Shown: positions 3,001 through 48,604, counted from the first letter of the stretch. The stretch: DNA of 64,000 nt from Candidatus Moraniibacteriota bacterium (GCA_030645735.1 JAUSNP010000004.1:10739-74738), one strand, 5' to 3'. Program-made: numbers and translations. The notes: generated by a model not told the origin, from the letters alone.

Positions 3001-3008
3001 CTGCCTTT

Positions 3009-13957: not shown

Positions 13958-14394
13958 AATGCTCTTTTTTCGCAGTCCGTAAAGTCCCAAGTCCGTAAAG
14001 TTTTTAAAGTCACATACTTTATGGACTTTTGACTTTATAGCCTTTCGACTCTAGAACGCGTTTATAACTGGTGCAAAAAACAAAAATGAAAAGATCGCAA
14101 TCGCAATTACAGAGAAGATGATGAAGATAAACTTCAAGCTTTCTCCGTATTTTTTAGAATACGATTTCATATTATTATTGTCCATTGTAAATATACTAAT
14201 ACAACTATTTATTCAGTAGATCTTGTGCACTCAGTTGAATTTCGCCATAAGCAAACTTCAACCGAGATAGTTTAGAAACTATTAACCACTAACCCACGCA
14301 TAACGCGTAACGCATATCGTGAAACATATATGAAATACGTTCTACGATTTGCGCTCTACGATCTGCGATTTATTTAAATTTAAGAGTGTAATTT

Positions 14395-17570
<3,176 letters not shown>

Positions 17571-27800: not shown

Positions 27801-30800
27801 GAACCTGTGGTATTGACATAGAGAGCATTCATACCATTGGCGGTGTTTTGAAGCCCCGTAGTGTTAGTATAGAGTGCTTGTCCACCATTGGCAGTATTTT
27901 CTTGGCCCGTAGTATTGAATCGGAGAGCTCTATATCCATTAGCTGTATTTACGCCACCCGTAGTATTAGAGTTTCCAGCCTGATAACCCGTGAAAGTATT
28001 CCAATTTCCCGTATTAACATTCCCTGCTTGATAGCCAAGAAAGGTTGAAAATCTTGCATCATCAAAATTAATCAGTCCACTAACTTGCAAGCTATTATTT
28101 GGCGTTGTAGTTCCAATGCCGATGTTGCCTGTTGCATTTACTACCGTTAATAAAGCTGTGCCGCTTGAATTACTAACAATTATATTTCCACCTAACTCTG
28201 GTGCAAATAAAAAATTATTGCTGTTGTCGATTCCAAAATACCCCTGACGAGCCGTATTATTATAAAATTCGATATAATTCCAACCGCCCGTGGTCTTACG
28301 CAATCTAATAGGATTATCAGTTGTGCTCGAAATTTCTAATTTTGCCCCTGGCGTCGTTGTCCCGATGCCAACATTTCCACTGCTTGCTTGAATATACATA
28401 CGATCAGTGGCACCGGCGTTGAATCGCATATTTATTGAATTAGCCGAGCCCATACTTAGTGTGCCGCTAGTGCTATTTCCATCATGCGTAAAAAGCGCAG
28501 CCCCGCCAAGACGGACATATTGATTCTGAGCTAGATTTAAATCGCCACCGCCAATGTCCAACTTGTATGCTGGATTCGTCGTTCCAATTCCAACATTGCC
28601 TCGCAAAATTGTTTCCACGACAGAGGCGTTGCCCAGCACTACTTGATTGCTAGCGGTGGTATAGGCGCCATTGCCCAGTGCCATGGAATTTGTAGCATCA
28701 ACTTTTTGCGAAGCATTGTTGCCAGCACTATTTCCCAAAAATGTATTGTATGTCCCAGTTGTAATTGAAAATCCAGATTGATAGCCCATAGCCGAATTGT
28801 TATCAGCAATAGTATTGCGCAAAGAATATGGACCAATTGCTACATTTGAAGAACCCAAGACATTCATTCTAAGCGCTTCTGAACCAACTGCTACATTATA
28901 TGCTCCAGAAGTATTGGCATACAGAGTATATGAACCAATTGCTGTATTCATCATCCCCGTGTTATTTGGCCCAAGAACATAAACTCCCAAAGCAGTATTA
29001 TAATTGCCAGTATTATTGACACTCGCTCCAGCGCCTATCAATGTTGAGTTCTTCGCACTATCAAAATTAATCAATCCTGCCACCTGCAAAAGATTATTTG
29101 GCGTAGTCGTGCCAATACCCAAGCTTCCATTGACGGCCAAAATATTGGTTGAAAAATCTCCATAAATCAAAGGCGTGGCCGTGTTGGAATTGTCGATATA
29201 CAATTTGTCTGATCCAGTTTCGCTGTAACCAGCTTGGTAACCAAGAAAGATGTTGCCAGAGCCAAGCGCTGAATATCCAGCTTGATAACCAAAGCCAATA
29301 TTATTGCTGTTGGTACTAATGTTCCTAAGAGTTTCCTGGCCTATGGCATAATTATTAGAACCAGTCGTGTTTGAAATAAGCGCATACAAGCCAATAGCGA
29401 TATTACTGTTTCCAGAAGTATTTGAATAAAGAGCCATATTGCCCATGGCGGAATTATATGATCCAGTAGTGTTAGAATACAATGCCAGTGGCCCAAAGGC
29501 AGAATTATATGAGCCAGTAGTATTAGAAAAAAGGGCGCTATTTCCCAAAGCTGAATTATAAAATCCAGCAATGTTTGCACGAAGCGCTTGGTTTCCTAGA
29601 GCTGAATTATAACCACCTGTAGTGTTTGAAAAGAGAGCTAGATAGCCAATTCCCGTGTTATCATTATTCGTCAAATCATCCACTTTTCCAGCATCTTCAC
29701 CGAAATAGGTTGACCGTCCTAGCCCAGTTTGTGAAACCCGTCCGTTAATGGTTAGTTTTGCTCCAGCAGTTGAAGCGCCGCTAATTCCTACTGTGCCATT
29801 TATGGTCAGTGCATCGGTTGAAAAATCTCCATAAATCAAAGGCAACGCTGTATTGGAATTGTCGATATACAATTTGTTTGAACCAAGTTCATTATAGCCA
29901 GCGTTATAGCCAACAAAAATATTGCCCGAACCAACAGAATTTTGAAATCCTGCCCCATTGCCAACACCAACGTTGCTATTTCCAGTAGTATTGCCCCGCA
30001 AAGCATCTACGCCGACAGCCGAGTTATAGCTACCCGTCGTATTGGAATAAATAGCATACACTCCGAAAGCAGAGTTGTATCCACCAGCAGTATTATATCT
30101 GAGAGCTCTCATCCCAAACGCAGAATTACTCCAGCCATCAATGTTATACATCATGGACTGATAACCTACAGCTACATTATTTTGACCAGCAGTATTGCGA
30201 TTAAGAGTTTGATATCCGACTGCAATATTATTTGAAGCTGTATTACTATAAAGAGTACCTGTTCCAATGGCAATGTTATAACCACCTGTGTTAGAATATA
30301 GCGCCTGATATCCCACAGCTATATTGTCTTGACCCGTGGTATTTAACGCCCCAGCCTGATAGCCCACAAAGGAGTTATGAATTCCAGCATTCGCATTCCC
30401 CGCTTGATAACCAAGGCTTGTGGAATATAGGGAGTTATTAAAATTTATAAGTCCCGCTACTTGAAGAAAATTATTTGGCGATGAAGTTCCAATGCCAAGA
30501 TTACCAGCAAAATATCCATTACCGCTAGCATCGAGCTTGAATTTATTGACGCTATTAACATTGAAATCCAAGAAGTCGCCACTGAATGAGCCAGAGCCGT
30601 TGGCGAAATTCATATTGATACCATCTCCAGAAAAAGCGGAGGTTGTCTGAGATAAACTCAAAGCATTTCCGGTTGTTACTCCACTCTGATATAAATATAT
30701 CCCGCTTGAACCTGATGCAACAGTCGATAACTCAAGCGCGGTATTGCTTATATTTTGATTTATTGTAAGGGCTGCGCCTTGTGCATTGTTTGTAAAAACT

Positions 30801-32218
30801 GCCCTGCCTCTTGGCGCAATAGTGAAAACATCCCCACCACCGAGAGTTGCAGGTTGTGATATTTTAAAGACACTCTGGCTAACTCCTTCCTTCCCTTGAA
30901 TATGCAGATTGGCGGATGGCGTACTCGTCCCAATCCCCACATTCCCCTCAGCATAAATATTTTTCACATTCAAATCCCCCAACTCCTCCGTATTCTCTCT
31001 TTGAAATAAGTTAAATTGTGACAGAGTGGCGTCCCAGACCAAGGCTGCATAGCCGTTTAGGCTCGAGCGATAGAAACGCAAGCCCATAGTTTCATCAACT
31101 GTTGAATCAGTGTTGATGGCAAAGTATTCACTGGTAGTTCCGTTTAGGTCTGTTCCACCTACACTCATGTTGTCTACATACAAGCTAGACCAGTGATTGG
31201 TAGCTGAGCCCAAATTAAGTCCCGTGGTTGATGGAATCAAATTGGAATTGATGGTCACATTCTCACCCGAGGTTCCCAGTGTGGCCTCACCATTGATGAT
31301 GAGTGATCTAGCATTGATAGTTCCAGCAACATCCAGCGCATAGGCAGGATTGTCTACGCCGATGCCGACATTGCCGTTGTTTAAAATCACCATCCGTTTA
31401 ACATCGGCGATTTTGATGAAAACATCACCTATGCCATCGGCGTTGGAGTCAGCGATGACCAATGCGTCGTCCGTATTGGAAATGTTTTGAGAAGAGATCA
31501 AATCTCCCCAAGCCGGCAAGCCGTTGATGACGCTTAGGACTTGTCCATTAGTACCAATTTTTAAATTAGACAGTGTGTTAGCAGCTGAAGCAAAAAGGGT
31601 GTCGCCGACGGTGTAGGTGGTGAGACCAGTGCCACCAAAGTTTGTGGTGACAGCATCGCCTTCCCAGGTTCCCGTGGCAATCACGCCGAGCGTTGTGATG
31701 CTGGGTAGAATTTTAGCATCGATCTTTCCACCTTTAGCTAGTTGCACAATGTTGCCTTCGGCTGTGCCAAGAGTGGCGCCACCGACTGAGTAGGAATCTG
31801 AAGCCAATGGCACAGCACCAATCTTTTTTCTGGGCACCATTTCACTGTCTGTGTTGATGCGGATACCGATGTAGTAATCATTTTCAGAAAAGTTCAAATC
31901 GGCCGGCAAAGGAGTTTCTTCCCCGAGGAAAGCGCCGATAGAACCGTTTTCAATTTTCACCTTTTGGGTTTCCTCCCAAACTCTGGCTCCAGCATCAGCA
32001 TTAGATGGATAACCATCTGTCTTTGTGCGGTCAGTGGTGTAAATGGCAAAACGGATGTCATATTCCCCATTGGGAATTTCTTTGTTTTTGTTGTTGAGGA
32101 TGTAGGCGGAGACATCGAGTTTTTTGATGGCTTGCGCGTGATTGGAAAAAAACAAAAGACTGCCTACTGTTGTTAGTAGAGCGACAGTTGCAATTAGTTT
32201 TGTTTTTGTTCTAAACAT
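24875..32218 (-). CDS. Giant secreted surface protein 3 (2447 aa). It has a signal peptide, tail-fibre-like NTxG/AxG beta-helical repeats, and ends in the conserved C-terminal module.
   Basis: The N-terminal signal peptide is MFRTKTKLIATVALLTTVGSLLFFSNHAQA. There are long runs of the YxSxxGxxAL..NTTGxxN(T/S)A.G repeat type seen in phage tail-fibre/beta-helix proteins. The SGDFLDF module and the C-terminal roughly 330 aa are shared with giants 1 and 2. Confidence 0.8.
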   Translation of the reverse strand: MFRTKTKLIATVALLTTVGSLLFFSNHAQAIKKLDVSAYILNNKNKEIPNGEYDIRFAIYTTDRTKTDGYPSNADAGARVWEETQKVKIENGSIGAFLGEETPLPADLNFSENDYYIGIRINTDSEMVPRKKIGAVPLASDSYSVGGATLGTAEGNIVQLAKGGKIDAKILPSITTLGVIATGTWEGDAVTTNFGGTGLTTYTVGDTLFASAANTLSNLKIGTNGQVLSVINGLPAWGDLISSQNISNTDDALVIADSNADGIGDVFIKIADVKRMVILNNGNVGIGVDNPAYALDVAGTINARSLIINGEATLGTSGENVTINSNLIPSTTGLNLGSATNHWSSLYVDNMSVGGTDLNGTTSEYFAINTDSTVDETMGLRFYRSSLNGYAALVWDATLSQFNLFQRENTEELGDLNVKNIYAEGNVGIGTSTPSANLHIQGKEGVSQSVFKISQPATLGGGDVFTIAPRGRAVFTNNAQGAALTINQNISNTALELSTVASGSSGIYLYQSGVTTGNALSLSQTTSAFSGDGINMNFANGSGSFSGDFLDFNVNSVNKFKLDASGNGYFAGNLGIGTSSPNNFLQVAGLINFNNSLYSTSLGYQAGNANAGIHNSFVGYQAGALNTTGQDNIAVGYQALYSNTGGYNIAIGTGTLYSNTASNNIAVGYQTLNRNTAGQNNVAVGYQSMMYNIDGWSNSAFGMRALRYNTAGGYNSAFGVYAIYSNTTGSYNSAVGVDALRGNTTGNSNVGVGNGAGFQNSVGSGNIFVGYNAGYNELGSNKLYIDNSNTALPLIYGDFSTDALTINGTVGISGASTAGAKLTINGRVSQTGLGRSTYFGEDAGKVDDLTNNDNTGIGYLALFSNTTGGYNSALGNQALRANIAGFYNSALGNSALFSNTTGSYNSAFGPLALYSNTTGSYNSAMGNMALYSNTSGNSNIAIGLYALISNTTGSNNYAIGQETLRNISTNSNNIGFGYQAGYSALGSGNIFLGYQAGYSETGSDKLYIDNSNTATPLIYGDFSTNILAVNGSLGIGTTTPNNLLQVAGLINFDSAKNSTLIGAGASVNNTGNYNTALGVYVLGPNNTGMMNTAIGSYTLYANTSGAYNVAVGSEALRMNVLGSSNVAIGPYSLRNTIADNNSAMGYQSGFSITTGTYNTFLGNSAGNNASQKVDATNSMALGNGAYTTASNQVVLGNASVVETILRGNVGIGTTNPAYKLDIGGGDLNLAQNQYVRLGGAALFTHDGNSTSGTLSMGSANSINMRFNAGATDRMYIQASSGNVGIGTTTPGAKLEISSTTDNPIRLRKTTGGWNYIEFYNNTARQGYFGIDNSNNFLFAPELGGNIIVSNSSGTALLTVVNATGNIGIGTTTPNNSLQVSGLINFDDARFSTFLGYQAGNVNTGNWNTFTGYQAGNSNTTGGVNTANGYRALRFNTTGQENTANGGQALYTNTTGLQNTANGMNALYVNTTGSYNTANGRHTLFSNTTGSFNTANGVDTLYSNIIGNYNTGVGYQAGYSVLGSGNIFIGYKSGYSETGSNKLYIDNSNTASPLIYGDFSTDIVAFNGSVGIGTATPTSLLQVDGNGGYVSAMINSAAGQSRDLMFSSGGLSRWIIRANSVAESGSDVGTNLEFVSRTDAGALKSTVMTLLRTNGYVGIGTTAPAYKLEVAGSGLGDQFQITKFGNDGNASYGSWLKTRGTTAGSMVTTQDGDYLGIFQFGGVTSVNTFGQAARIIVQQDGTAGSTFYNPANMQFRVSSNTAEITAMTIKPTGNVGIGTTAPESKLHVISGASEIITLERATAITNSVASALFVRHTTSGDMVDGFGSSLTFQIKDSAGVANAVGSIQALRVGADNTSSLLLNSYSAGTPVEGMRITSNGRIGMGVTVPAEKLDILGNIKLSSTYPALRFKPTAWTENADFQVGINDSFTLEGAYAGFYIPANKGFLVSRGTNSHNFIVNSTTGYVGIGTNSPVGELHVTSSDTVSADRGITSSQHASSVHSALLNLRKSRGTILSPSTLANGDYIGSVGFFGYGTAYTQRATIFAIVNGTVVADSVPTDLVFRTGSTVVAEQMRITSAGNIGIGTSNPTAKLDVVGQTTSSDGFIQKTNAGACTDLTFTTATDGLTCLDTTLGTERLYFRTGGTWSYIAKTGGFQIPNYEVAPLNQLSKNTLKGVTPNELTHFQNYLTQQITPGELLIPYADSTLQDGAIHGLYARFADVKDQMFQEQISQIENLNLQVTGNITTVAELKNSVNTQFGSIEKSLSEITNNQDTSTKQISNINDQINAQTQNIASLQTITETLQQQITTLQSQIATPVNIAQIDANTQSIDYLNQLLGITDTSKAGDITIVGKLTSQITETGSIIITVDPKNKDKATIGEATIKAGDTSVTVNTKAVSGDSKVFVTSMIVTDQPLAVTKINAGEGFIVKIKIPSVEDLKFNWWLVDSK

Positions 32219-35897: not shown

Positions 35898-36113
35898 CTA
35901 GTTACTAGCCTTGTCTTGCGTTTGTTTCATCTTTGCTAGAGCGCCATTTATAAACACCATTCCGAGCCTACTAAGCTTATCCATATGTAATTCAGCCTCA
36001 TCCTCGGTGATTTTCTTGCCGGAGCGTTCGAATATGAGATTCTGACACTTCTTGATTAGCTCATTTGAATATGTGCGACTTGGTTGTTCTTCTCTTTTTA
36101 AGTTTGTCATATT
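35898..36113 (-). CDS. Small protein of the paralogous ELIKKCQ..IFERSGKKIT.DEAE family, copy 1
   Basis: The start is chosen at the internal Met (MTNLKREEQPSRTYSNELIKKCQNLIFERSGKKITEDEAELHMDKL...) by alignment with copy 2. It is followed by an intrinsic-terminator-like hairpin at about 35740-35770. Confidence 0.5.
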   Translation of the reverse strand, partial: NMTNLKREEQPSRTYSNELIKKCQNLIFERSGKKITEDEAELHMDKLSRLGMVFINGALAKMKQTQDKASN

Positions 36114-36192
36114 CTTTGTGATGATAGTGAAAACAAATTGACCACACTCTTTATTATGCAACAATTGAATAAAAAAATTTTACTTTTTTTAT

Positions 36193-36642
36193 CTAAATTA
36201 TATTTAGATAGACAAAAAATAAAACACTTATAAGATTCACGAATAACAACGCCGTCATAACAAAAGTTTGAATTTCGATAAATTTCGATTGCCATGCCTT
36301 TCCTCCAAATGGGCCAACTAGATGTTTTCCAGTTTCTCTTGCGTGTTTAGTATAAACTTCGGCTGATTCTCGAGTAATTAAAAAATAAAAGAGATTTTCC
36401 AATAAAGCCGCCAAAACAATTAAAACAGCGGTGAGAATTATGATAAAAAAGAAAACTTTCTTGTAATTTGTATCAAGAGACACTGATGTTGAAAGAAAGA
36501 AAAGCCCCGATGTAACAGGCGTGTATATTGTCAAAAGAAGTTTTGAAAATATCCTTCTTTCTTTATCTGTTTCATTAATCAGTTTGTTAAACACCCGCAT
36601 GATTGTTAGTTCATCATTTGGATCTAATTTATCGGTATCCAT
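36193..36642 (-). CDS. Integral membrane protein, hypothetical, downstream partner of copy 2 of the small protein family
   Basis: A 149-aa ORF with three hydrophobic helices. It lies 21 nt from the preceding gene. Confidence 0.45.
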   Translation of the reverse strand: MDTDKLDPNDELTIMRVFNKLINETDKERRIFSKLLLTIYTPVTSGLFFLSTSVSLDTNYKKVFFFIIILTAVLIVLAALLENLFYFLITRESAEVYTKHARETGKHLVGPFGGKAWQSKFIEIQTFVMTALLFVNLISVLFFVYLNII

Positions 36643-36663
36643 TTCGGTTAATAACTAAATTTA

Positions 36664-36855
36664 TTATTTCTTTTTTACTTGTTCCTCTTGATCCAAAACT
36701 TTCACCGCCAGCATGAAATAGCGCGCAAATTTTTCGAGATATAATTCGGCCTTGTCCTTAGTGATTTTTTTGCCGGAGCGTTCAAATATGATCCGCTGGC
36801 ACTTTTTAATCAATTCACTCGAGAATGTGCGTTTTGGCTGATTTTCTTTTATCAT
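36664..36855 (-). CDS. Small protein of the ELIKKCQ..IFERSGKKIT family, copy 2
   Basis: MIKENQPKRTFSSELIKKCQRIIFERSGKKITKDKAELYLEKFARYF.... Identity to copy 1 is clear. Confidence 0.55.
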   Translation of the reverse strand: MIKENQPKRTFSSELIKKCQRIIFERSGKKITKDKAELYLEKFARYFMLAVKVLDQEEQVKKK

Positions 36856-36921: not shown

Positions 36922-37221
36922 TTACTTTTTTCCAGATTCCAAATTTTGTTCGGCTGGCGAAAGACCACCGGCGGCTTTATGCGGAAAATAATTCCAAGCG
37001 TCTGTGACAAGCTCCAAAACATTGCCCAATTCTGAGGCATCGCCACCACGGTCAAACATCGCCACGACATGCATAAAATCATCCTGCTCTTCTTCGTTGA
37101 AAATCGCATCTTTGATATCTCGCAATTCAAAATCACTTTCAGTTTCTTCAAGCATTTCCAAAATCTCGCTTTCAATTTCTTTGCGCCTTTCTAAAATTTC
37201 TTCTTTTGTTTCAGTTTCCAT
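36922..37221 (-). CDS. Acidic small cytoplasmic protein, hypothetical, 5 nt downstream of the serine protease gene
   Basis: A 99-aa ORF rich in E/D (MFDRGGDASELGNVLELVTDAWNYF). It overlaps an alternative-frame ORF that is judged spurious. Confidence 0.45.
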   Translation of the reverse strand: METETKEEILERRKEIESEILEMLEETESDFELRDIKDAIFNEEEQDDFMHVVAMFDRGGDASELGNVLELVTDAWNYFPHKAAGGLSPAEQNLESGKK

Positions 37222-37226
37222 ATTTT

Positions 37227-38102
37227 TTATTTTTCAGATCCAACATCTTGAACTTTTGCCTCCTCGGTTTTTTGAGGTAGAGGAATTTTGTCAATAATTT
37301 CAAATATTAATTCGATAGGCACAACTCTTACTAATCCAGTTTGTTCTGTAAATATTATTCTAGGCTCACCAGTCTGCTGACTAATAGCAACATCAGAATA
37401 ATTTTCTCCTGAACTAACAACGCCTATTAATCCTGCGGAAGGATTACTTTGGGTGCCAGCAATTGCTAGCAATTCCGGTTTATGGATAACTGGGCCTCCA
37501 CTATTTCCGGGATAAGCCGAAGCATCGATATAGAAAAAACCTTCCCCCAATACTTCTTCATCAACTCTAGCTATTATTCCTTGTCTAACAATAACAAAAT
37601 TTCTTGCTTTACCACTTATACGCATTGGAAATCCAAGTACAAACAATCCATCGCCGGTTGAAATATTTTTTGTTGCAAAATCTTTAGCATAAAATAACTC
37701 TTCCCCAACAAAAAAATCGTAATTTATTTTTGCCTCGTCTATTGCAGTAGCGTTAATTGGAAGCACCGCCAAATCAACTCTTTCATCTTCGTGCATTAAC
37801 CAGAGAGGACAACCATCACTCTTTAATAAATTCACTTTGAAATAATGACTTTTATTATCCAAAGTGTTAAATCTAAAAAATACCTCCTTGAGAAATTCCT
37901 TTGTTTTTTTATTCTGATATACATGCCTATTTGTCACAATAAACAACCTGAAGAGGGCGCCTCCTTCATTACTTTTGCCTGTTGGTTTTCCCACCAAAAA
38001 ACCCGTTGCAATTGAGTTTTTTTGCAACAATCCATTATTATCTTTACTCTCAACTTCAATTGATACAACTGAGTTTAAATAATGTGGTGGTATTAATGAC
38101 AT
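37227..38102 (-). CDS. Trypsin-like (S1/chymotrypsin fold) serine protease with no signal peptide, sitting within the R-M operon
   Basis: His (..TNRHVY..), Asp (..RVDLAVLPI..) and Ser (..GNSGGPV..) triad motifs appear in canonical order. The gene is co-directional with res and lies 6 nt downstream of it. Confidence 0.7.
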   Translation of the reverse strand: MSLIPPHYLNSVVSIEVESKDNNGLLQKNSIATGFLVGKPTGKSNEGGALFRLFIVTNRHVYQNKKTKEFLKEVFFRFNTLDNKSHYFKVNLLKSDGCPLWLMHEDERVDLAVLPINATAIDEAKINYDFFVGEELFYAKDFATKNISTGDGLFVLGFPMRISGKARNFVIVRQGIIARVDEEVLGEGFFYIDASAYPGNSGGPVIHKPELLAIAGTQSNPSAGLIGVVSSGENYSDVAISQQTGEPRIIFTEQTGLVRVVPIELIFEIIDKIPLPQKTEEAKVQDVGSEK

Positions 38103-38108
38103 AAGATT

Positions 38109-40784
38109 TTATTTTTTAAATGCACCTACTAACTGCATAAAGCTTGTCGGCTTATATTTATCCCATTCCTCCTGCTTAACATAAAGCATTTTATATTCAA
38201 TTTTCTTTTGTCTTTCACTGGCATCCTCGCACCATTGTGCCAATCTTTTTATTTTTTCAATATCATCCAAATCTTCCCGTCCTTTTGTTTCGATAATATA
38301 GATTGTTTTGTTATCTGTCTTCACAAAAAAGTCTGGGTAATAACTGGAAATTGCACCGCTCGCATTTTTGTAATCAATCTTGAAATGAATTTCAAAGTAA
38401 TTTTTTGCGAAAGAAAGCACATCTTCAGCACCTTCCAAGAAGTCCGCAAATTCAAGCTCGAAATCACTGTCGCCGACAATTTTATTAAATACGCTCTTTT
38501 TGGGCAATAAATATTTTTTATCAGTTACCACAAATGGTCGCGCGCTACTAATTTTGAGATAATTTTTTATTTCCGTATCACCAACATCCTGCACAGTCAA
38601 ATTGTTTATCTCTTTTTTAAAGGTTTCGACAATAGTTTTTACCGCCTCTAATTCGGATAAGTTTCGCAAAATATTTGCGTCATTAAGATTCACTTCTTCA
38701 TTAAATAGATGCGCGTTGATAAATTCTTTCACTTTGCCAAAAAGAATGTCATAGCAACCAAAGAGACGGAGTTCTTTCATTATTCTTTGCACAAAAAATC
38801 CAATCACACTTTGGTAATTTGGCTCAATGGAGCTATTCAAAATTGTTGTGTGATGTTCTTTGTCATCAATAACTTCCTTAAAAACAATCTCTTTCTTTTC
38901 TTCCTCGGAAAACTGCTTAACTGAAATTTTTTCATGTTTGAAAGTAGCAATATTCAATAGATTGAGATTTTTGTATTCCCTCTGGATTCTCGGTGTCAGA
39001 ACCGGCAGTTCAATGTCCAAATTTTCAATATCTTTTTTTACATTTTCATGATCGACTTCAATGACTGTGGGAGTGATTGGAGAACCGCTTCGATCCATTC
39101 TTCTTTTTTCCAATTCAACACCTTCTGCCTTGATTGATTCAACAAACTCCATAAAAGCAGGTGTTCCAATGATACTCACATACTCTTCCACATCTTGTCC
39201 AAAAAACATTCGGCGAAGACCACGACCGAGTGTCTGCTCTGGCAAAATTTTTGAATCAGAACCATAAGGACGGAGTCCAACGATTGTTGTCACATTTTTT
39301 ACATCCCAACCCTCTTTGAGCATCAAGACAGAAACAATGACTTTATATGGGCTTTCCATGCTATCAATATCATTGGCCTTTTTCCTGAGTTCTTGCAATT
39401 CTTTTTCTTTTTTGCCAGTTGTCGTTTCAGATATCTCACCACTTCTATTTGTGTGAATTGTCAGAACCGCACCTTTCAATTGTGGATAGCTATTTTCCAA
39501 AAATTCCGCCACATCATCACAATTCGTTGTATCATCAGTCATTATAAAAAGAATCGATTTTTTTCCTGTTGGCAATAATTCTGTATATATCTTTTCCCAT
39601 TCTTCCACGCCCAGTCGAATAAAGTCTTCGTATTTTTCAGAAAATATTGAACTTTGTTTTTCTTGCAGTTTTGCCCGACTGGCAGAATCCGGCAAGACCG
39701 GATTTTTCACTACGCCTTGATGGATAGCTTCAACCAGCGGATAGTCAGAAACAGTCTGCACAAAAATCTCGCCACGATTATTTTTTGGTGTCGCAGTCAC
39801 ATCGATTTGCAAAGCTAGTTTTTTACCCTTTTGTAATAATCGATTATGAATATCTTCGATTGATTTAAACCATGCCATTTTTGGATCATGAATGTGATGA
39901 GCTTCGTCATTAATAACCATCAACTCATCAACGTCGCGCACGATTTCTCCTAAATCAATTTTTGAATCATTAGTCTTTCCAGTAACCTTACTGCCCATAA
40001 AATAATCTGACGTGTCCTCATCTTCAAAACTAGCTTCAGATATATCGCCTTCATAAACTCTATGTATATTAGTCAGAAAAATATTTCCCGATTTTGAAAT
40101 TGTGCCAACCTCATCTTGCAAATGCAGTTTTATTTGAAAATCATCTTGCCAATTTTGTCCGGCAAATCCATTATCAGGCAAAATCGGATCATCATGAAAT
40201 ATTTTCAATCCTTCAAAATCAGCCTTGATTCGATCCAAAACGATGATATTTGGCGTGATGAGTAAGAAATTTTTAGATAGTTCAGAATCTTCTTCATAAA
40301 GCTTGTGAAAATATGACCAAGCTAATAGCAAACTCATAACTTTTGTTTTTCCACTTCCAGTCGCCATCTTTATCACAAAACGAAGCCAATCCTCATTGAA
40401 CATATTCGGACTAACACGACCCAATTTATCAAACTTTATCAAATCATATTTGTTGGAAACTTTTTCAACATCATAGAGCCAGATAATTGTTTCCACTGCC
40501 TCTCTTTGAGCATAATAATATTGAAAGGAAACGCTTGTTCCGTCTTTGGCAAAAATGGTGTGTGGCTCAAGAAACCACCAATTCAAAAGAGCCTTGGAAG
40601 TTTCGCTTGCTCCGTCATAATTATTCTTTCGCCACTCCGCAACTTGCTCACGCAATTCTGGAACAAAAGGAGGCAAAAGCTTTTCAAAACCCTCTCTTCG
40701 CAAATCTTCTTCGGCCGGAAACCACCTGATTGCCGGATCAAGGATTTGAAATTTATCTTTTGGAAAATCTTTGTGTAATGCCAT
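38109..40784 (-). CDS. res: Type III restriction enzyme Res subunit (SF2 helicase plus a C-terminal PD-(D/E)xK-like nuclease)
   Basis: Walker A is ..MATGSGKTKVM... DEAH box is ..VINDEAHHI... A helicase C-terminal region follows. The C-terminal ..YYPDFFV...YIIETKGRE.. motif is nuclease-like. Confidence 0.85.
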   Translation of the reverse strand: MALHKDFPKDKFQILDPAIRWFPAEEDLRREGFEKLLPPFVPELREQVAEWRKNNYDGASETSKALLNWWFLEPHTIFAKDGTSVSFQYYYAQREAVETIIWLYDVEKVSNKYDLIKFDKLGRVSPNMFNEDWLRFVIKMATGSGKTKVMSLLLAWSYFHKLYEEDSELSKNFLLITPNIIVLDRIKADFEGLKIFHDDPILPDNGFAGQNWQDDFQIKLHLQDEVGTISKSGNIFLTNIHRVYEGDISEASFEDEDTSDYFMGSKVTGKTNDSKIDLGEIVRDVDELMVINDEAHHIHDPKMAWFKSIEDIHNRLLQKGKKLALQIDVTATPKNNRGEIFVQTVSDYPLVEAIHQGVVKNPVLPDSASRAKLQEKQSSIFSEKYEDFIRLGVEEWEKIYTELLPTGKKSILFIMTDDTTNCDDVAEFLENSYPQLKGAVLTIHTNRSGEISETTTGKKEKELQELRKKANDIDSMESPYKVIVSVLMLKEGWDVKNVTTIVGLRPYGSDSKILPEQTLGRGLRRMFFGQDVEEYVSIIGTPAFMEFVESIKAEGVELEKRRMDRSGSPITPTVIEVDHENVKKDIENLDIELPVLTPRIQREYKNLNLLNIATFKHEKISVKQFSEEEKKEIVFKEVIDDKEHHTTILNSSIEPNYQSVIGFFVQRIMKELRLFGCYDILFGKVKEFINAHLFNEEVNLNDANILRNLSELEAVKTIVETFKKEINNLTVQDVGDTEIKNYLKISSARPFVVTDKKYLLPKKSVFNKIVGDSDFELEFADFLEGAEDVLSFAKNYFEIHFKIDYKNASGAISSYYPDFFVKTDNKTIYIIETKGREDLDDIEKIKRLAQWCEDASERQKKIEYKMLYVKQEEWDKYKPTSFMQLVGAFKK

Positions 40785-40788
40785 ATAA

Positions 40789-41145
40789 CTATTTCTTTTT
40801 TATTAGCTCCTGAATTTGTTTTTGCTGTTCCAATATTAACTGTTGATTTTTTTGATTTTGATCAAGAAGTTCCTGGTTAATCTTCTGTGATTGTTCAACA
40901 GATCCGGTTTTTTCTGAATATTCCTTATAGATGGCTGAATTTATATGAAAAGAATCAATAATCAATGTTGACACCATCACTAATAAAATTATAACAACAC
41001 TAAGTAAGATATAGTTTATATCTTTAAATTTAGAATCGGCTTCTTTTTTAACATCTTCCACCGTAACAGAGCCACCAGTTTCTGGTATTTTAATTTGGAT
41101 TTCACCAAGTTCAGATTTTTCAAATTGCACTTGTTCCTTTTCCAT
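40789..41145 (-). CDS. Small single-pass membrane protein with a Q-rich coiled-coil C-terminus, inserted between mod and res
   Basis: A 118-aa ORF with a central TM helix (ILLSVVIILLVMVSTLII) and ...QELLDQNQKNQQLILEQQKQIQELIKKK. Confidence 0.4.
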   Translation of the reverse strand: MEKEQVQFEKSELGEIQIKIPETGGSVTVEDVKKEADSKFKDINYILLSVVIILLVMVSTLIIDSFHINSAIYKEYSEKTGSVEQSQKINQELLDQNQKNQQLILEQQKQIQELIKKK

Positions 41146-41148
41146 AAA

Positions 41149-41367
41149 TTAAAAAATACCCTTAATTACAAGAACGCCAGACTCCTCCTCAACAGCAAAA
41201 TCTCTTCCAACAAATTGAGCAAGATCTATCCCACTAAAAGACACTCCTCTACCAAATCTAACACCTGGGCCCATTTGCACGCCACCAATTCTAACCAAGC
41301 GAAGAGGCTCAATGCTTCCATCTGTATCTACTTTAAATATTTGATAAAAATTAATTCTTTGAATCAT
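41149..41367 (-). CDS. Small Gly-rich hypothetical protein between mod and res
   Basis: A 72-aa ORF with a 4-nt overlap or spacing to its neighbours. No motif was recognised. Confidence 0.3.
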   Translation of the reverse strand: MIQRINFYQIFKVDTDGSIEPLRLVRIGGVQMGPGVRFGRGVSFSGIDLAQFVGRDFAVEEESGVLVIKGIF

Positions 41368-41371
41368 TAAT

Positions 41372-43534
41372 TTATATATTTATCTCAATTACTTTGGTCG
41401 TATCGTTTCCAAAAATATCAATCACCTTGATTGCGATTTTCATTTTGCCTTTGGACACTTCCTTGAAAACTGAAATCAATTCAAGAGATCTGTCTTTTTT
41501 GGTTCTGAATGATTGCCACTCATTTTCAAAAATATAATTTCCAGTCCATTTTTCTTCAAAGTCGCCTATCTCCATTTGTACAGCATCAGACGATCCATCA
41601 AGTTTTTGCTGAACAGTTTTTTCTTTCGGCACTCTGATAATTTCTTTTTTGCTTTCAAAATCAAAATCCACCGACCAATAATCAATCCAGTCAGTCCATT
41701 TTTTTGTCAAAGTTTCACGCTCAATAATATCCGTATTTTTATCCTTGGAAATCTTTATGACTTGACCGTTTTCAATGACAATCTTGTTTCCACCGGATTT
41801 CAATTTTTCCTCCACTTCTCCAGTATTGTCTTGATTATAGAAAACGGAGAAATCAGTTATCTCAATAGCAACTTCTTTGGCGTTGCCTCGTCCGCGGATA
41901 ATTGGTTTAACTTCAATATAGGCAATGTCATAAAATTTCACCTGTCCTTTTTCAACCGCTTTTTTATCAAACACTTCACGCGGAATAACCTTAAATTGCA
42001 CATCAATACCCAGTTTTTTTGCTTGCTCAAAGTCCAGTCCCATTTCATAGTCAAATCCCAAAACATCAGCTTTAGTTATTTTATTCTCCCGACATTCAGT
42101 GATTATTTTTTCCAGAAAATCATTTGTAATTGGCGTATCAATTGATCCGACTGCAATCAGCCTATCTCTTTTCTTACCGACAAATGAATTGAATGAATCA
42201 ATTGGCTCAGCCTTGTAGGCAGAAAGAATGAGTTTGATAAATTCTTTTTCTTTATTCACCCTTTGAATTCTTTTTTCTTCGTCACGCAAATTTTCATTCA
42301 CAGTCAAAAACTTCTCTCTTTCATATTTTCCAATATTTAAAATTTCAAATGCTCGAAAATTTTTACCAACTTTCTTCAATTCTCTTTGCACCCCAATCAT
42401 TCTCTTGCGAGTGGTATGGACAGAAAAACGACCTAAATCAGAACCAATCCATTTTCGATTTAGCTTTTCTGCAACCGCCAAAGTTGTGCCTGAGCCACAG
42501 AAAAAATCAGCAACAAGATCACCTTCATTGGAAGAGGCGCTTATTATTCTTCTGAGCAGTGACTCTGGTTTCTGGGTTGGATAAGCAATGTGTTCAGGAA
42601 GTGCATTAAAAACCTGTCCGATATTATTTTCTTTTCTATCTAGCCAAGTCCAAACATCATCCGCTTTTCTCCCTTCATCTGCATAATATCTTGTAGCATT
42701 ATTATTTCCAGACATTCTATACTTTCTACCATCCTCATCAACAAGAGGATAAATACTTTCATTCTTTACAAGCAAACGCACTTGATTAAATTTTACTGAT
42801 TTTTTATTTTTAGCAAAAGAAATTATATAATCATGCTTTTTAGCAAAGCCTTTTATTGGCGCTGTACCAGCCTGATAATGCCAAATTATTTGATTCAAAA
42901 AATTTTCCTTTCCAAAAATTTCATCTAGAATTAAGCGCATATAACTATTCAATCTCCAATCACAATGCACATAAACACTACCATCATCCGCCAAAAGACC
43001 GTGCATCAACTTTAGCCTTTCATAAATCATCGCTATAAAACTATCGGCGCCTTTGCCCCAGGTGTCGCGGTAGGCAATTTCTTCAATCACCGACGGTTTT
43101 TTGGTGAAAGTATCTTCGCCAATTTCAATATTCATCGAAAAATCCGCGCCCACATCAAATGGAGGATCGATATAAATCAATTTCAATCCACCCTCAGCTT
43201 CAATTTGTTTTCGAAGTGGTCCATTCTTGAGCGATGACAAAATCAATTTATTGTCACCCCAAATTAGCTTGTTTGACCAGCCTTTCATTTGCCGGCCAGA
43301 AGTGTCAAAAAGAGAAGTTTGCGCGGTTATTTTTTCCTCACTCCGTGGTTCATCAATATGCTCAATCGTCTGAAATGGCAAAACTATATTTTCCGTTTCA
43401 TCAGTTTTTCCATTCCATAAAAGCTCAACCTCCCGATCGGTGTCAAAAAGCAAAAAGCGGTATTTCTCCGGCAATGACTTGCCAGATTCCAAATACTTTA
43501 TTACATCTCGTTTTTCATTCTCAGTTAGCTTCAT
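41372..43534 (-). CDS. mod: Type III R-M Mod subunit (N6-adenine/N4-cytosine beta-class DNA methyltransferase)
   Basis: Motif IV (..LIYIDPPFDVGADF..) precedes motif I (..DFFCGSGTTLAVA..). The protein is 720 aa and lies upstream of res in the same orientation. Confidence 0.85.
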   Translation of the reverse strand: MKLTENEKRDVIKYLESGKSLPEKYRFLLFDTDREVELLWNGKTDETENIVLPFQTIEHIDEPRSEEKITAQTSLFDTSGRQMKGWSNKLIWGDNKLILSSLKNGPLRKQIEAEGGLKLIYIDPPFDVGADFSMNIEIGEDTFTKKPSVIEEIAYRDTWGKGADSFIAMIYERLKLMHGLLADDGSVYVHCDWRLNSYMRLILDEIFGKENFLNQIIWHYQAGTAPIKGFAKKHDYIISFAKNKKSVKFNQVRLLVKNESIYPLVDEDGRKYRMSGNNNATRYYADEGRKADDVWTWLDRKENNIGQVFNALPEHIAYPTQKPESLLRRIISASSNEGDLVADFFCGSGTTLAVAEKLNRKWIGSDLGRFSVHTTRKRMIGVQRELKKVGKNFRAFEILNIGKYEREKFLTVNENLRDEEKRIQRVNKEKEFIKLILSAYKAEPIDSFNSFVGKKRDRLIAVGSIDTPITNDFLEKIITECRENKITKADVLGFDYEMGLDFEQAKKLGIDVQFKVIPREVFDKKAVEKGQVKFYDIAYIEVKPIIRGRGNAKEVAIEITDFSVFYNQDNTGEVEEKLKSGGNKIVIENGQVIKISKDKNTDIIERETLTKKWTDWIDYWSVDFDFESKKEIIRVPKEKTVQQKLDGSSDAVQMEIGDFEEKWTGNYIFENEWQSFRTKKDRSLELISVFKEVSKGKMKIAIKVIDIFGNDTTKVIEINI

Positions 43535-44561: not shown

Positions 44562-44698
44562 ATTAAAATCATTTTATTGATTTTGGAAAAAACAGAGAAT
44601 TCACTCTGTTTTTTCGTTTGAATAAACGAAAAAGTTCAACAGCCAATTCTCTCGTGGCTTGTTTTCTTGACGGCGTGGGGAGCGTTTTATGTAATGCA

Positions 44699-44896
44699 GT
44701 CATGCAAGAACAATTTTCACCACACCTCATAGAAAAATGCCAAAAGCTCGTTTTCAAGCGAGCTGGGGTTCACATCACCGAAGATCAAGCAGGGAGGTGC
44801 TTGGAAAAATTGGCGCGTTTGGCTAAACTGGCTTTCGAGACTCTTGTGGAAAATAAACATAATGCAAAACCCGATGGAAAGAATAATCACAATTGA
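44699..44896 (+). CDS. Small protein of the ELIKKCQ family, copy 3 (..PHLIEKCQKLVFKRAGVHITEDQAGRCLEKLARL..)
   Basis: The start is placed at the internal Met by alignment with copies 1 and 2. Confidence 0.5.
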   Translation, partial: VMQEQFSPHLIEKCQKLVFKRAGVHITEDQAGRCLEKLARLAKLAFETLVENKHNAKPDGKNNHN

Positions 44897-45416: not shown

Positions 45417-45662
45417 ATGGCTATGGTCAAGATTGAGGGCTTCCTCAAAAAGCTGGAAAAATTGCCGTTGAGCGAGCTATGCCCGCTCATCGACAATGTG
45501 AAGTGGAACTGCGGAAAATTAGACAAAGGCAATGAGCCATGCTGTCATAATACCTATAAATATATGAACTGTCCGCATTTCAAAAAATGGTTCTATTGGA
45601 ATGTGACCCGGATGGTTGCCAAAGAAATCGCCAAACTGGAAATTAGTCAAAAGAAAAAGTAA
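45417..45662 (+). CDS. Small Cys-motif protein (LCPL...C..CC..C family), copy b, a paralog of 45142-45375
   Basis: An 81-aa ORF containing ...SELCPLIDNVKWNCGKLDKGNEPCCHNTYKYMNCPHF.... Confidence 0.45.
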   Translation: MAMVKIEGFLKKLEKLPLSELCPLIDNVKWNCGKLDKGNEPCCHNTYKYMNCPHFKKWFYWNVTRMVAKEIAKLEISQKKK

Positions 45663-45702
45663 CCAAAAAGAAATGTAAATAATACTTACTTACTAAAGGT
45701 AC

Positions 45703-45744
45703 AGTAACTAGTAAGTAAGTATGGTTTTAAAAACTTTTTCTTTG
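45703..45744. promoter_or_regulatory. 14-bp perfect inverted repeat hairpin (atacttacttacta / tagtaagtaagtat) directly after the Cys-protein gene. It may be a terminator or a recombination/operator site.
   Basis: Read from the sequence. It is followed by GGTTTT. Confidence 0.5.
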
Positions 45745-46856
45745 AGAAATCTCTCTAACTGAAAAACTGAAACGACCTAAAAATCCCTCTGTCGCGCGAA
45801 AAATGCTACGCTATGCACATTTAAAAGGCTCGGATAAGCCAAAGTTATGGGAATTAAAAATGACGGTGATCCGCCGCGCGCTGGCAACGAACCACTGACT
45901 TGAAAAAATGCACAAATCTTGGCAGAGGCGCAGCGGAAAGGGCGCCAGAGGACAAAAAAATTGGAGCAATCTTTGAGAAGACGCATTTTTGCCGGAACAA
46001 TGACGGCCATCCGGAATTGGACGGAAAAATGCAAGCGACGAGAAGTTGAAACGATTTTGTTTGGCCTCGGGTTCGCACTCCCCTCGCCTTGGGGCGAGGG
46101 GTTGGGGGTGTGGGGAAATCCAAAGTGCGGAAAAGGATTGATGTCCTACAACGGGCATTCTTGCGACACCCCTTTTTTCTCAAAAATCGGGGAAAGCTTG
46201 GACACGATTTTTGCAAGAAAAAAGAGCGTGTTCGCAAAATGCCTCGTTGTGGGAGGGTGAGAAAAAGACAGTCCTTTAGTTTTCAAAGTGAAGTTTTTTT
46301 CGAATCCCCTTGCGTCAATCCTTTTCCTTCCTTGCGGGGAAAGAGATTGAGAAGACCGCCAAGGTTTTCTCACTACTAAAGCAGTTTGACCGCAACCTTT
46401 ATAAATTGTGCAGGATGAAACAGTGGCATTGGAAAAGTCTGATTAGATATTTGGCAGTCTGGAATTTTCGCCGCGAAAAGTTCCAGTCTGCCAAATTCCT
46501 TGAATGAAAACATTTTCCAAGGACACTGTTTCTTTCTGCTTTCCTTTTTGATTGGTTGCGGGAAAACTACCCTTATTTTAGGGGGTTATCCATAGAATAA
46601 AAATATGTTATTATACATATGGACACAAATTAATATTCATCAGAACACAATCGGTGCGATTTTTTTTCGTATCGAGAAAAGGGCGACTTTCGCTTCAAGT
46701 TCTGATGAAGAATTTGTGTCCAGCGAGGTCGTCCTTTTGTTTGGGCGAAAAACAAAAAAATTATGGACACAAACTTATTACTCAGCGATTCACCGGCAGA
46801 CTTGCCAACCATATTGATGTTTTTTGGAACATTTATTTTTATAATTTTTATGGAAT

Positions 46857-48443
46857 ATGGAAACGATAAAAACAAAAACAAATAAACCAAAATTTGTCAT
46901 CTATGCCCGTAAGTCATCAGAAGACAATAGCAAACAAGTGCATTCGATTGATGCGCAGATTTTTGTCATGAAAGACATTGCCAAACATGAAGGCATTCAG
47001 ATTGTGGAAATCTTTCAAGAATCAAAATCCGCCAAAGAACCTGGGCGGCCGGTTTTCAACAAGATGATCGAGCAATTCAAGAAAAACAAATATGATGGCA
47101 TTCTCTGCTGGAAAATTGACCGCTTGGCGAGAAATCCGGTGGACGCCGGAATTGTGCAATGGCTTTTGCAGAAAAATTCCATCCAGCAGATTATCACCAG
47201 CGACCGAAAATATAATCCGGAAGATAATGTCATTATTGCCAGCGTAGAATTCGGAATGTCGAATCAGTATATTTTGGATTTGTCTAAAAATGTGAAACGC
47301 GGTTTGGCGGAGAAAGTTCGGCGCGGAGAATATCCCGGGCCGGTGCCACTCGGATATTTGCGAGATTTCAAAACTAAAAAGATTATCCTAGATCCTGACA
47401 AAGCGCACTATATCAAACGAGCCTACCAACTTTATTCAACTGGCCTTTATTCTATCGACCAGCTCACGGAAAAACTGAACAATGAAGGCTTGCGCTCTTT
47501 GCACAGCCAAAGAGTCCAGCCATCAATTATTGGGCGCATGCTGAATAATCCAATTTATTATGGCTGGTTTGAATGGAAGGGCCAACTTTGCCCGGGCAAG
47601 CACGCGCCAATCATCTCCAAGGACATTTTTGACAAGGTGGACGAGATAATGTTTCCGCAGAGGGTTATGAAACGGAAAGATAAGCGAAAGTTCACTTTTC
47701 GCGGCCTTTTGCGTTGCGGTGAGTGTGGGTTGAAGATAACCGCGGAGGTGCGGAAAGGCCACACCTATTATCGTTGCACGAAATCCAGAGGCACCAACAA
47801 ATGCTCCCAAAGATATGTGCGTGAAGAGGCTCTGGACGAAGAAATCAACCGCAAGCTATCTGAGCTCAACTTTGATCCGGAAGTGACTGAGCTGGCCATT
47901 TTGGCGCTCAAAGACCAAAACAGAAACCAACTGCAACAGCAAATTGAAATCCAAAGAAAGAACGAGGAACTGCTCCGCAAGAACCGAGAATCGCAAGACA
48001 TCCTCGTCAATCGCTTTTTGGACAATCTCGTGCCAGAGGATATTTATAATCGCCGGCTGACAGGCTTGCGCAACGATGAAGCACGGTTGGATGAAATAAT
48101 CCAAAACACCAAAGACAACACACGCAACGCTTTTGATAAGATTGAAACGATTGTGCGCTTTTCCCAATTAGCCAATGAAATATTTACAAATGGAACTCCG
48201 GTAGCGAAGAAAGAAGTGGCTGGCATAATATCTTCGGACATCACTTTGAAAGATAGAAAAATCCTTGATTTTAGCCTTGATGTTGAATTTCAATGGATGA
48301 TAGATGATATGAATGACTCGTTTGCCCTAAACCACAAAATTGCAATCTTGGAACCAGTCACTTTAGCTTTAGAAAAAGCAAAAGCAGGCATTGAGTTGCC
48401 TGCTAAAAGCGTTGTGCGGGGCTGGCCGGACTCGAACCGGTGA
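46857..48443 (+). CDS. Large serine recombinase (phage-integrase type). It has a resolvase catalytic domain, a recombinase domain and a zinc-ribbon domain.
   Basis: The N-terminus is ..FVIYARKSSEDNSKQVHSIDAQ.. with the catalytic Ser motif, followed by ..ILCWKIDRLARN... The zinc ribbon is ..CGECGLKIT...YYRCTK..C.. and a long coiled coil follows. The last roughly 25 nt of the ORF overlap the 3' end of tRNA-Asp. Confidence 0.9.
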   Translation: METIKTKTNKPKFVIYARKSSEDNSKQVHSIDAQIFVMKDIAKHEGIQIVEIFQESKSAKEPGRPVFNKMIEQFKKNKYDGILCWKIDRLARNPVDAGIVQWLLQKNSIQQIITSDRKYNPEDNVIIASVEFGMSNQYILDLSKNVKRGLAEKVRRGEYPGPVPLGYLRDFKTKKIILDPDKAHYIKRAYQLYSTGLYSIDQLTEKLNNEGLRSLHSQRVQPSIIGRMLNNPIYYGWFEWKGQLCPGKHAPIISKDIFDKVDEIMFPQRVMKRKDKRKFTFRGLLRCGECGLKITAEVRKGHTYYRCTKSRGTNKCSQRYVREEALDEEINRKLSELNFDPEVTELAILALKDQNRNQLQQQIEIQRKNEELLRKNRESQDILVNRFLDNLVPEDIYNRRLTGLRNDEARLDEIIQNTKDNTRNAFDKIETIVRFSQLANEIFTNGTPVAKKEVAGIISSDITLKDRKILDFSLDVEFQWMIDDMNDSFALNHKIAILEPVTLALEKAKAGIELPAKSVVRGWPDSNR

Positions 48444-48490
48444 CCTACTGCGTGACAGGCAGTCGCTCTAACCAACTGAGCTACAGCCCC
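48417..48490 (-). tRNA. tRNA-Asp (anticodon GTC)
   Basis: The reverse complement is GGGGCTGTAGCTCAGTTGGTTAGAGCGACTGCCTGTCACGCAGTAGGTCACCGGTTCGAGTCCGGCCAGCCCC plus a discriminator. The cloverleaf and the anticodon loop CTGTCAC were checked by eye. Confidence 0.8.
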
Positions 48491-48513: not shown

Positions 48514-48576
48514 TTGCGTAACCTACTGCGTGGCAGTCCCGAGTACTCGGGATCTGACCAACTGAGCTACAGCCCC
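48514..48576 (-). pseudogene. Truncated pseudo-tRNA-Asp fragment. It comprises the 5' acceptor and D arm, an 18-nt palindrome, and an anticodon-stem remnant, and has no T arm.
   Basis: The reverse complement is GGGGCTGTAGCTCAGTTGGTCAGA-tcccgagtactcggga-CTGCCACGCAGTAGGTTACGCAA. It duplicates the 5' half of the adjacent tRNA-Asp. Confidence 0.5.
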
Positions 48577-48604
48577 ATAATTTGTCTATTTTATTTTCAA
48601 CCCG

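Follow-up and report, generated by a model that had tools for sequence, protein, structure and literature searches.

Systems of restriction-modification (R-M) are usually treated as closed units of two or three genes. The canonical Type III systems, EcoP15I and EcoP1I, are made up of mod and res, and in the three-gene Type III variants of the N4-methylcytosine (m4C) kind a conserved extra gene for a helicase-like ATPase lies 5' of mod and seems to be tied to the system (PMC8259958). Guardians embedded in R-M loci, among them PrrC and PARIS, have been reviewed and are known for Type I systems (PMC12707154); the gene of the anticodon nuclease, prrC, lies within the Type Ic EcoprrI locus (PMC1484252, PMC12707154). 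Here we describe a Type III locus in a stretch of 64,000 nucleotides from a Candidatus Moraniibacteriota bacterium (GCA_030645735.1 JAUSNP010000004.1:10739-74738), the whole of which is called the window below. Positions 36922-43534 of its minus strand hold six consecutive open reading frames (ORFs), namely mod, orf72, orf118, res, protease and acid99 (Table 1). Comparison with related loci (labelled L and a number) revealed that orf72 and a small membrane protein gene form a conserved, portable cassette that is associated with R-M.

Results

The Mod and Res enzymes

In the translation of mod, DPPF (LIYIDPPFDV) precedes FxGxG (FFCGSGTT), which is the Type III order of these motifs (DPPY/F before FxGxG). 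Mod matched Pfam N6_N4_Mtase (5.6e-46) and PADLOC MTase_III (9.5e-113), and its best solved relative in a PDB search was EcoP15I Mod (1.7e-17). Res contains GSGKT, DEAH and a C-terminal PD..(E)xK motif (YYPDFF...IIETKGRED), so that both the helicase and the PD-(D/E)xK domain of a Type III nuclease are present, and it matched Pfam ResIII (1.8e-18) and RE_endonuc (1.1e-05) and PADLOC REase_III (9.2e-23). The C-terminus of Res is matched by both RE_endonuc and the TnsA-like N family of Pfam. The match to the BPTD_3080 family of restriction endonucleases (NCBIfam NF046055) is not full-length (292 bits, cut-off 800), residues 39-382 covering only model positions 69-406 of 970, and the PDB search by sequence found no relative of Res. 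Mod and Res are a canonical-looking Type III enzyme pair, for which we infer ordinary Type III restriction: Mod would methylate the host sites, and incoming DNA that lacks the modification would be cut by the Mod/Res complex, with the ATP dependence usual for Type III enzymes.

An earlier note on this locus had called Mod and Res unmistakable, and had reported between their genes a 72-amino-acid (aa) glycine-rich ORF and a 118-aa ORF with a single transmembrane (TM) helix and a coiled coil. All six ORFs are present on the minus strand at the coordinates it gave, the motifs and the Pfam and PADLOC Type III profiles agree on the two enzymes, and both inserted ORFs proved to be real and conserved. 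Its spacings were right for the last two gaps and slightly off between mod and res, for which it had given 4-5 nucleotides (nt); read off the sequence, the gaps from mod to acid99 are 4, 3, 4, 6 and 5 nt.

A portable pair of small genes between methyltransferase and nuclease genes

In the window res does not directly follow mod, since orf72 and orf118 lie in between, and the order mod, orf72, membrane protein, res was likewise found in at least 14 non-redundant related loci. Exactly this order is seen in ten loci (L091, L109, L114, L128, L133, L135, L136, L142, L145 and L146), and one further gene stands between the pair and res in L120, L122, L130 and L156. The pair is still kept where the identity of Mod and Res to those of the window falls to 35% (L128) or 27-30% (L133).

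A total of 83 orf72 loci were retrieved, of which 82 were analysed, 67 of them non-redundant. A small ORF lies 3' of orf72, within 10 nt or overlapping it, in 51 of the 67. In every case this partner is a small membrane protein, and at least three unrelated forms of it occur (one TM helix with a coiled coil; three TM helices in about 130 aa; and a form of about 90-100 aa). The orf72 sequences group by partner type, which indicates that orf72 and its partner are inherited together. Similarity at the DNA level between contexts extends from a few bases before the orf72 ATG to the stop codon of the membrane protein gene. The flanks are unrelated between contexts, neither repeats nor conserved non-coding DNA were detected around the cassette, and no recombinase and no att-like sites accompany the pair. 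Among 2.9 million viral contigs orf72 is nearly absent (one viral contig), and it had no plasmid match.

In Patescibacteria metagenomes the cassette usually lies directly after a methyltransferase gene and before a nuclease gene, in R-M operons of Type III, of the MmeI-like kind and of Type II. By Pfam assignment, the gene upstream of orf72 in 34 non-redundant loci was N6_N4_Mtase (12 loci), MmeI (2), D12 (2), N6_Mtase (2), HsdS, HsdR-N, AbiTii or FtsW (1 each) or ribosomal protein L9 (4). In 37 loci the pair was followed most often by ResIII (11) or RE_endonuc (5), then by Trypsin_2 (2) and serine recombinase (2); Eco47II, DUF6997, NYN, HEPN_AbiU2, Schlafen AlbA_2 and AAA_15 were also found there. 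For example, the pair is located 3' of an MmeI-type enzyme in L099, it follows a D12 methyltransferase in L095, where DUF6997 and two more methyltransferases come next, and a 42%-identical orf72 homolog stands ahead of an Eco47II nuclease in L165. The two serine recombinases directly 3' of the pair are large proteins in the place of a nuclease (L110, 142-2235, and L111, 537-1597; gaps of 4 and 1 nt).

Neither the literature searched nor Pfam, NCBIfam, PADLOC and PHROGs contained a description of the orf72/membrane protein pair or of small genes between mod and res, in agreement with the earlier note, which had not recognised the gene combination as a described defence system. Both the four-gene Type III variant (mod-orf72-TM-res) and the portability of the cassette across R-M types are robust observations, undescribed as far as found.

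Properties of orf72 and its membrane partner

There are 139 homologs of orf72 at 60-86% identity, and an exhaustive HMMER profile search extended the family to 401 clusters at 50% identity. Its AlphaFold2 (AF2) model is a small beta-barrel (pLDDT 90.6), all-beta save for one helix of four residues. In orf72, as in acid99, codon variation is greatest at third positions. The many homologs, the confident AF2 models and the third-position variation indicate that orf72 and acid99 are real genes and not chance ORFs. In the orf118 protein a single TM helix (about residues 46-66) precedes a coiled coil rich in Q, N and K, and its homologs (28-73% identity) are encoded directly 3' of orf72 in related loci. 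Profile searches, which place the protease of the string in a PADLOC family (see below), gave no significant match for orf72 or orf118 in Pfam, NCBIfam, PADLOC or PHROGs, and no function of orf72 or acid99 emerged from profile or fold searches.

Among distant orf72 family members some have lipoprotein or signal peptides (P0432, P0461, P0409, P0453, P0508) and others a fused C-terminal TM helix (P0400, P0491), which indicates that the domain works at a membrane; outside Patescibacteria their sequences imply that it would sit at the envelope or membrane. The full HMMER profile search returned stand-alone, signal-peptide/lipoprotein and C-terminal-TM forms only, and no fusion of orf72 to an R-M protein.

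Two candidate identities for the small genes were rejected. A role of orf72 as an R-M controller (C) protein was excluded on the predicted fold, the AF2 model being all-beta without a helix-turn-helix, and on the lack of any match to a helix-turn-helix family. For orf118 an Rz-like i-spanin was considered; the spanin-type profiles stayed below their cut-offs (DUF2570, 18.5 bits against 26.6; phrog_214, E = 0.0015), no lysis genes lie nearby, and viral contigs hold almost no members of the family.

The protease

The protein encoded after res matched Trypsin_2 (9.5e-13, 49.5 bits, cut-off 27.6), which identifies it as an S1 protease of the PA clan, and its triad H60/D110/S201 (GNSGGP) is invariant in 14 homologs. 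It has neither a signal peptide nor a hydrophobic N-terminus, so the earlier description of an S1 triad in a protein lacking a signal peptide holds. It further matched PDC-S45, a single-gene candidate family of PADLOC (3.3e-24; residues 11-236 aligned to positions 23-241 of the 293 in the model), and phrog_7688, an uncharacterised phage family (1.3e-26). The literature searched contained nothing substantive on PDC-S45 and reported no anti-phage activity for it.

Homologs of the protease number 1902. Close ones (60-86% identity) are numerous in Patescibacteria, and more distant relatives (about 35-43% identity) are spread over many phyla and extend to archaea. A plasmid search yielded only a 29%-identity match. 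In Patescibacteria there is a tendency for the protease gene to lie 3' of genes for defence nucleases or helicases, and it does so directly in five of the seven distinct contexts. It follows Type I hsdR in L081, where the operon also holds DUF3644 and Abi_C and continues into GmrSD, a Schlafen-type helicase in L187, a small nuclease-like ORF in L113 and, with a gap of 1 nt, a TdeIII restriction nuclease in L001, the sole Parcubacteria locus of the distant-relative set that has upstream sequence. Elsewhere it comes after ProRS (L082) or stands alone beside FtsH (L085-L090), and some close homologs adjoin ProRS, FtsH or SmpB. In the Type I R-M operon of L081 (1-11747), hsdS and hsdR are separated by DUF3644, Abi_C and a 147-aa ORF, and hsdR is followed by the protease, a 109-aa ORF and GmrSD.

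Among 37 loci of other phyla the protease had no conserved partner, and neither Mod nor Res nor acid99 was encoded near it. The protease is self-contained, because its contexts vary and share no neighbour. Its single-gene occurrence and its profile match make it a stand-alone defence candidate of the PDC-S45 family.

The acidic protein

The last gene of the string encodes a 99-aa protein with an isoelectric point (pI) of 4.2 (28 D/E against 10 K/R), so that the acidic protein reported earlier after the protease is a real gene product. It has 1158 homologs, of which the best 120 show 69-89% identity, and its C-terminal motif is near-invariant. The AF2 model is a helical bundle (pLDDT 83.8). No family match was obtained in Pfam, NCBIfam, PADLOC or PHROGs, and a profile search of PDB gave nothing significant. 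DNA-mimic anti-restriction proteins of the Ocr/ArdA type were considered for acid99, whose model gave generic structural matches only. The C-terminal motif (WNYFPH..GG.SPAE) is similar to the end of rve-type transposase cores, and a relation to these enzymes was rejected, there being no rve match even at E = 10.

In Patescibacteria, acid99 is a widespread acidic gene at the end of or within many kinds of defence operons. It follows a different mod-res pair (L101), AbiEii and a 462-aa ORF (L104), a ResIII/Ymh/methyltransferase/DUF87 operon (L105), an EcoRI-methylase/GmrSD/PDDEXK/DUF3276 island that adjoins a serine recombinase (L182), and an AbiEii/GmrSD-HNH/EMARD/OLD-ATPase operon (L184). Among the 2.9 million viral contigs acid99 is nearly absent, with one contig (L180); at the end of this IMG/VR contig (6000-8264) it is fused in frame to a tape-measure-like ORF of high GC content, at the C-terminal end of the latter, and the contig is most likely a chimera of the assembly.

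Separability of the six genes

Neither the protease nor acid99 was present in any of the nine other mod-orf72-TM-res loci inspected that have sequence after res. Where an ORF was called in this slot, it was another gene: L091 has a nuclease-like ORF of 297 aa, L109 an HNH protein and two more ORFs, L142 a PIN_12 protein and L135 small ORFs. Furthermore, the protease is absent from all five other acid99 contexts sampled through acid99 homologs (L101, L104, L105, L182 and L184). The six-gene string is not supported as a fixed unit, and the proposal of the earlier note that the four extra genes make up one second effector module fails on these absences, on the protease occurring alone and on acid99 occurring elsewhere without it. 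Apart from the window, all three units were found together only in L113, in which a frameshift or a sequencing error divides acid99 (2798-3146) between two frames.

Limits of the gene string and island setting

Co-transcription of the six genes is suggested by their spacing. Only weak terminator-like sites lie within the string, and the scanned region does not clearly contain more of them than shuffled sequence would. Three further ORFs on the same strand precede the first strong terminator-like hairpin, so the transcription unit may extend to the left of 36922 and include these three ORFs, for which no family match was found in Pfam, PADLOC, NCBIfam or PHROGs. Of the operon at 36922-43534 that had been proposed, the six-gene string is real and the left boundary is open to revision.

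At about 35-45 kb the GC content is lowered to 33-38%, from about 41% in the flanks. One edge of the low-GC region is marked by a large serine recombinase gene, the 3' end of which overlaps the 3' end of the tRNA-Asp gene; gyrB lies on the other side, and related R-M loci are likewise flanked by serine recombinases. The low GC content and the serine recombinase overlapping tRNA-Asp indicate that the R-M string is cargo of a genomic island, and this part of the Candidatus Moranbacteria genome is a mobile defence island. Source records give the exact proteins as hypothetical proteins of Candidatus Moranbacteria, encoded on a 127-kb contig. No att-type repeat of the tRNA-Asp end of at least 11 nt was found, including at the far end of the low-GC region. 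The earlier suggestion of an R-M system hijacked by a mobile element survives in so far as a serine-recombinase island carries the operon as a whole, and does not apply to the inserted genes, which have neither a recombinase of their own nor flanking repeats.

Table 1. Features of the window, in window positions, with strand and description.
Feature	Position	Strand	Description
mod	41372..43534	-	720 aa, Type III beta-class N6/N4 DNA methyltransferase; first gene of the string
orf72	41149..41367	-	72 aa, small Gly-rich all-beta protein; first gene of the two-gene cassette
orf118	40789..41145	-	118 aa, small membrane protein; second cassette gene
res	38109..40784	-	891 aa, superfamily 2 (SF2) helicase with C-terminal PD-(D/E)xK nuclease
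protease	37227..38102	-	291 aa, cytoplasmic S1 (trypsin-fold) serine protease, PADLOC candidate family PDC-S45
acid99	36922..37221	-	99 aa, acidic (pI 4.2) helical protein
three ORFs past acid99	35898..36855	-	ORF calls, all 3' of acid99: 63 aa, basic (36664-36855); 149 aa, multi-TM (36193-36642); 88 aa, basic (35898-36164)
terminator-like hairpin	35776-35745	-	first strong one past acid99
large serine recombinase	46857..48443	+	Pfam Resolvase, Recombinase, Zn_ribbon_recom; island edge
tRNA-Asp	48416-48490	-	3' end overlapped by 3' end of the serine recombinase gene
partial tRNA-Asp-like copy	48518-48578		between tRNA-Asp and tRNA-Met
ORF-poor stretch	45600-46900		higher GC; between small plus-strand ORFs and the recombinase
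23S rRNA match	13841-17563	-	3182 nt against a 2925-nt model
very large ORF	6285-10784	-	1499 aa
very large ORF	18281-24610	-	2109 aa
very large ORF	24875-32218	-	2447 aa

Several other features of the window were noted. Three small basic ORFs, those of 63 and 88 aa past acid99 and one of 92 aa at 44618-44896 (+), are paralogous (42-60% identity), have no family match, and lie on both sides of the R-M string in opposite orientations. A search of the ORF-poor stretch (45.6-46.9 kb) against Rfam returned no credible match even at E = 1. The length of the 23S rRNA match suggests an insertion; a 5S gene adjoins it, and there is no 16S gene in the window. The three very large ORFs (1499, 2109 and 2447 aa) are located upstream of the island.

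Discussion

The reading that we consider probable is that of a canonical Type III R-M system accompanied by three separately portable units (the orf72/orf118 cassette, the protease and acid99) in a mobile island, with the cassette as an R-M-linked membrane module. The pair would then be a generic module acting at the membrane, in which soluble orf72 would report the state of the R-M enzymes or of the DNA and the membrane protein would be the effector, an arrangement like RexAB in its logic and like PrrC in its position; the protease and acid99 would act independently as additional island cargo. That the pair serves as a backup or guardian of R-M with a membrane effector is a tentative proposal by analogy. 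We favour it over membrane tethering and over hitchhiker or expression-spacer roles because the cassette, like prrC, lies within R-M operons and because it serves unrelated R-M enzymes. It is also possible, if somewhat doubtful, that the pair is a new portable module embedded in R-M operons of Types II, IIG/L and III in Patescibacteria, which either answers a block or an overload of restriction with a membrane-based abortive response or links restriction to the place on the membrane where DNA enters. In a stronger version, which the recurrence in L113 fits, restriction nucleases would have a layered add-on kit composed of orf72 with its TM partner, the PDC-S45 protease and acid99.

Several observations weigh against the probable reading. 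The neighbourhood samples are small, with seven distinct Patescibacteria contexts for the protease and six for acid99. The distant orf72 members are secreted lipoproteins, which fits an envelope role unrelated to defence, and some orf72 homologs stand beside housekeeping genes, as in the four loci with ribosomal protein L9 upstream. The guardian role is argued from gene position and analogy only, and spacing is the only basis for co-transcription. Moreover, L113 has the order orf72, three-TM membrane protein, 176-aa nuclease-like ORF, protease (41% identity) and acid99, which is the order in the window. This locus is suggestive, though not decisive, of some functional link between the units that a reading as independent cargo understates.

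A rival view is a single integrated six-gene defence system, in which all the parts work together and, for example, restriction or its failure activates a protease- or membrane-based abortive response. Gaps of 3-6 nt throughout with no convincing internal terminator predicted, the position of the protease directly 3' of a nuclease or helicase in most of its Patescibacteria contexts, and two other loci in which a more distant Trypsin_2 protein comes right after the orf72 pair all agree with it, as does the gene order of L113, which is kept there with a protease of only 41% identity and another variant of the membrane partner. We consider it unlikely, in view of the nine mod-orf72-TM-res loci that continue past res without protease or acid99, the five contexts of acid99 without protease, and the protease standing alone after ProRS or beside FtsH and having 35-43% relatives that share no neighbour.

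Alternatively, the pair could tether the R-M enzymes to the membrane and so couple restriction to DNA entry by competence or pilus uptake, which could feed salvage in nucleotide-auxotrophic Patescibacteria. Since the partners are membrane proteins of unrelated types, the conserved trait in this case would be membrane anchoring rather than the fold of an effector; TM anchors and lipoprotein signals in distant orf72 homologs, and the service of the pair to structurally unrelated R-M enzymes, point in the same direction. However, the accompanied enzymes share no common surface, a domain that is extracellular in some distant homologs could not hold a cytoplasmic enzyme there, and the link to DNA uptake comes from general knowledge of these organisms only. 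Tethering is in our judgement improbable.

We give little credit to the possibility that the small genes are hitchhikers or expression spacers without a defence role, either as a selfish or neutral cassette passed between R-M operons by recombination or by delaying the translation of Res relative to Mod. A hitchhiker would account for cassette boundaries that coincide with the two reading frames between unrelated flanks and for the further genes between the pair and res in several loci, and a position between methyltransferase and nuclease genes would suit delayed expression of the nuclease. Such readings are at odds with the strong conservation of the orf72 protein, its variation being highest at third codon positions, with its confidently predicted fold, with the retention of the pair while Mod and Res diverge, and with the lack of a recombinase, repeats or att-like sites. 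The all-beta orf72 without a helix-turn-helix is also unlike controller proteins.

An unrelated housekeeping operon abutting the R-M genes is very improbable, because, despite the close protease homologs next to ProRS, FtsH and SmpB and the four orf72 homologs behind ribosomal protein L9, all four extra genes lie inside the low-GC recombinase island, their homologs are patchy and have changing neighbourhoods dominated by R-M, Abi, GmrSD, OLD and PIN genes, and the protease matches a defence-candidate model. The earlier note had named such an operon as one way in which its own reading could fail; the homologs of the extra genes adjoin R-M and defence genes in many unrelated contigs.

Comparison with known systems

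Patescibacteria, which are tiny symbionts, rely heavily on R-M and, to our knowledge, are mostly without CRISPR. R-M operons stuffed with extra genes seem to be common in their islands, and the present loci show a tiny gene pair that has colonised the gap between methyltransferase and nuclease genes across mechanistically different R-M classes. They also provide a testable genomic context for three uncharacterised families, namely orf72 (401 clusters), acid99 (more than 1100 homologs) and the PDC-S45 protease.

The protease of the window matches the PDC-S45 model, and the family is stand-alone in variable neighbourhoods across phyla; the difference is that in Patescibacteria it is repeatedly located directly 3' of restriction nuclease or helicase genes. 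The RexAB-type abortive systems resemble the orf72/orf118 pair in combining a small soluble with a small membrane protein, and there is no homology to RexA or RexB. Rz-like i-spanins share with orf118 a TM helix followed by a coiled coil and match it weakly (E = 0.0015-0.002), but these matches are below the curated cut-off and probably compositional.

The locus shares with canonical Type III systems a beta-class Mod, a Res with an SF2 helicase and a PD-(D/E)xK domain, and the placement of mod before res in one operon. It differs from them in having two conserved genes between mod and res and more genes after res, and in a Res that has no PDB relative by sequence and only a partial BPTD_3080 match. 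The m4C Type III variants are likewise Type III loci with a conserved additional gene (PMC8259958), but their extra gene encodes a large ATPase upstream of mod, whereas the window has a 72-aa beta protein and a membrane protein between mod and res.

PrrC offers a parallel in arrangement: orf72 and orf118, like prrC, are non-R-M genes inside an R-M operon, between the modification or specificity genes and the restriction gene. The general logic of PrrC, a latent second-line effector held in check by the R-M enzyme, could by analogy apply to the pair. However, orf72 and orf118 match no ABC-ATPase or anticodon-nuclease domain in Pfam, NCBIfam or PADLOC and have no sequence similarity to PrrC, the putative effector is a small membrane protein, and the cassette serves several R-M types, not one. 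If the pair modulates or backs up restriction, it would be a second, independent example of a guardian within R-M operons, a principle so far represented mainly by PrrC, and one that is portable across R-M types.

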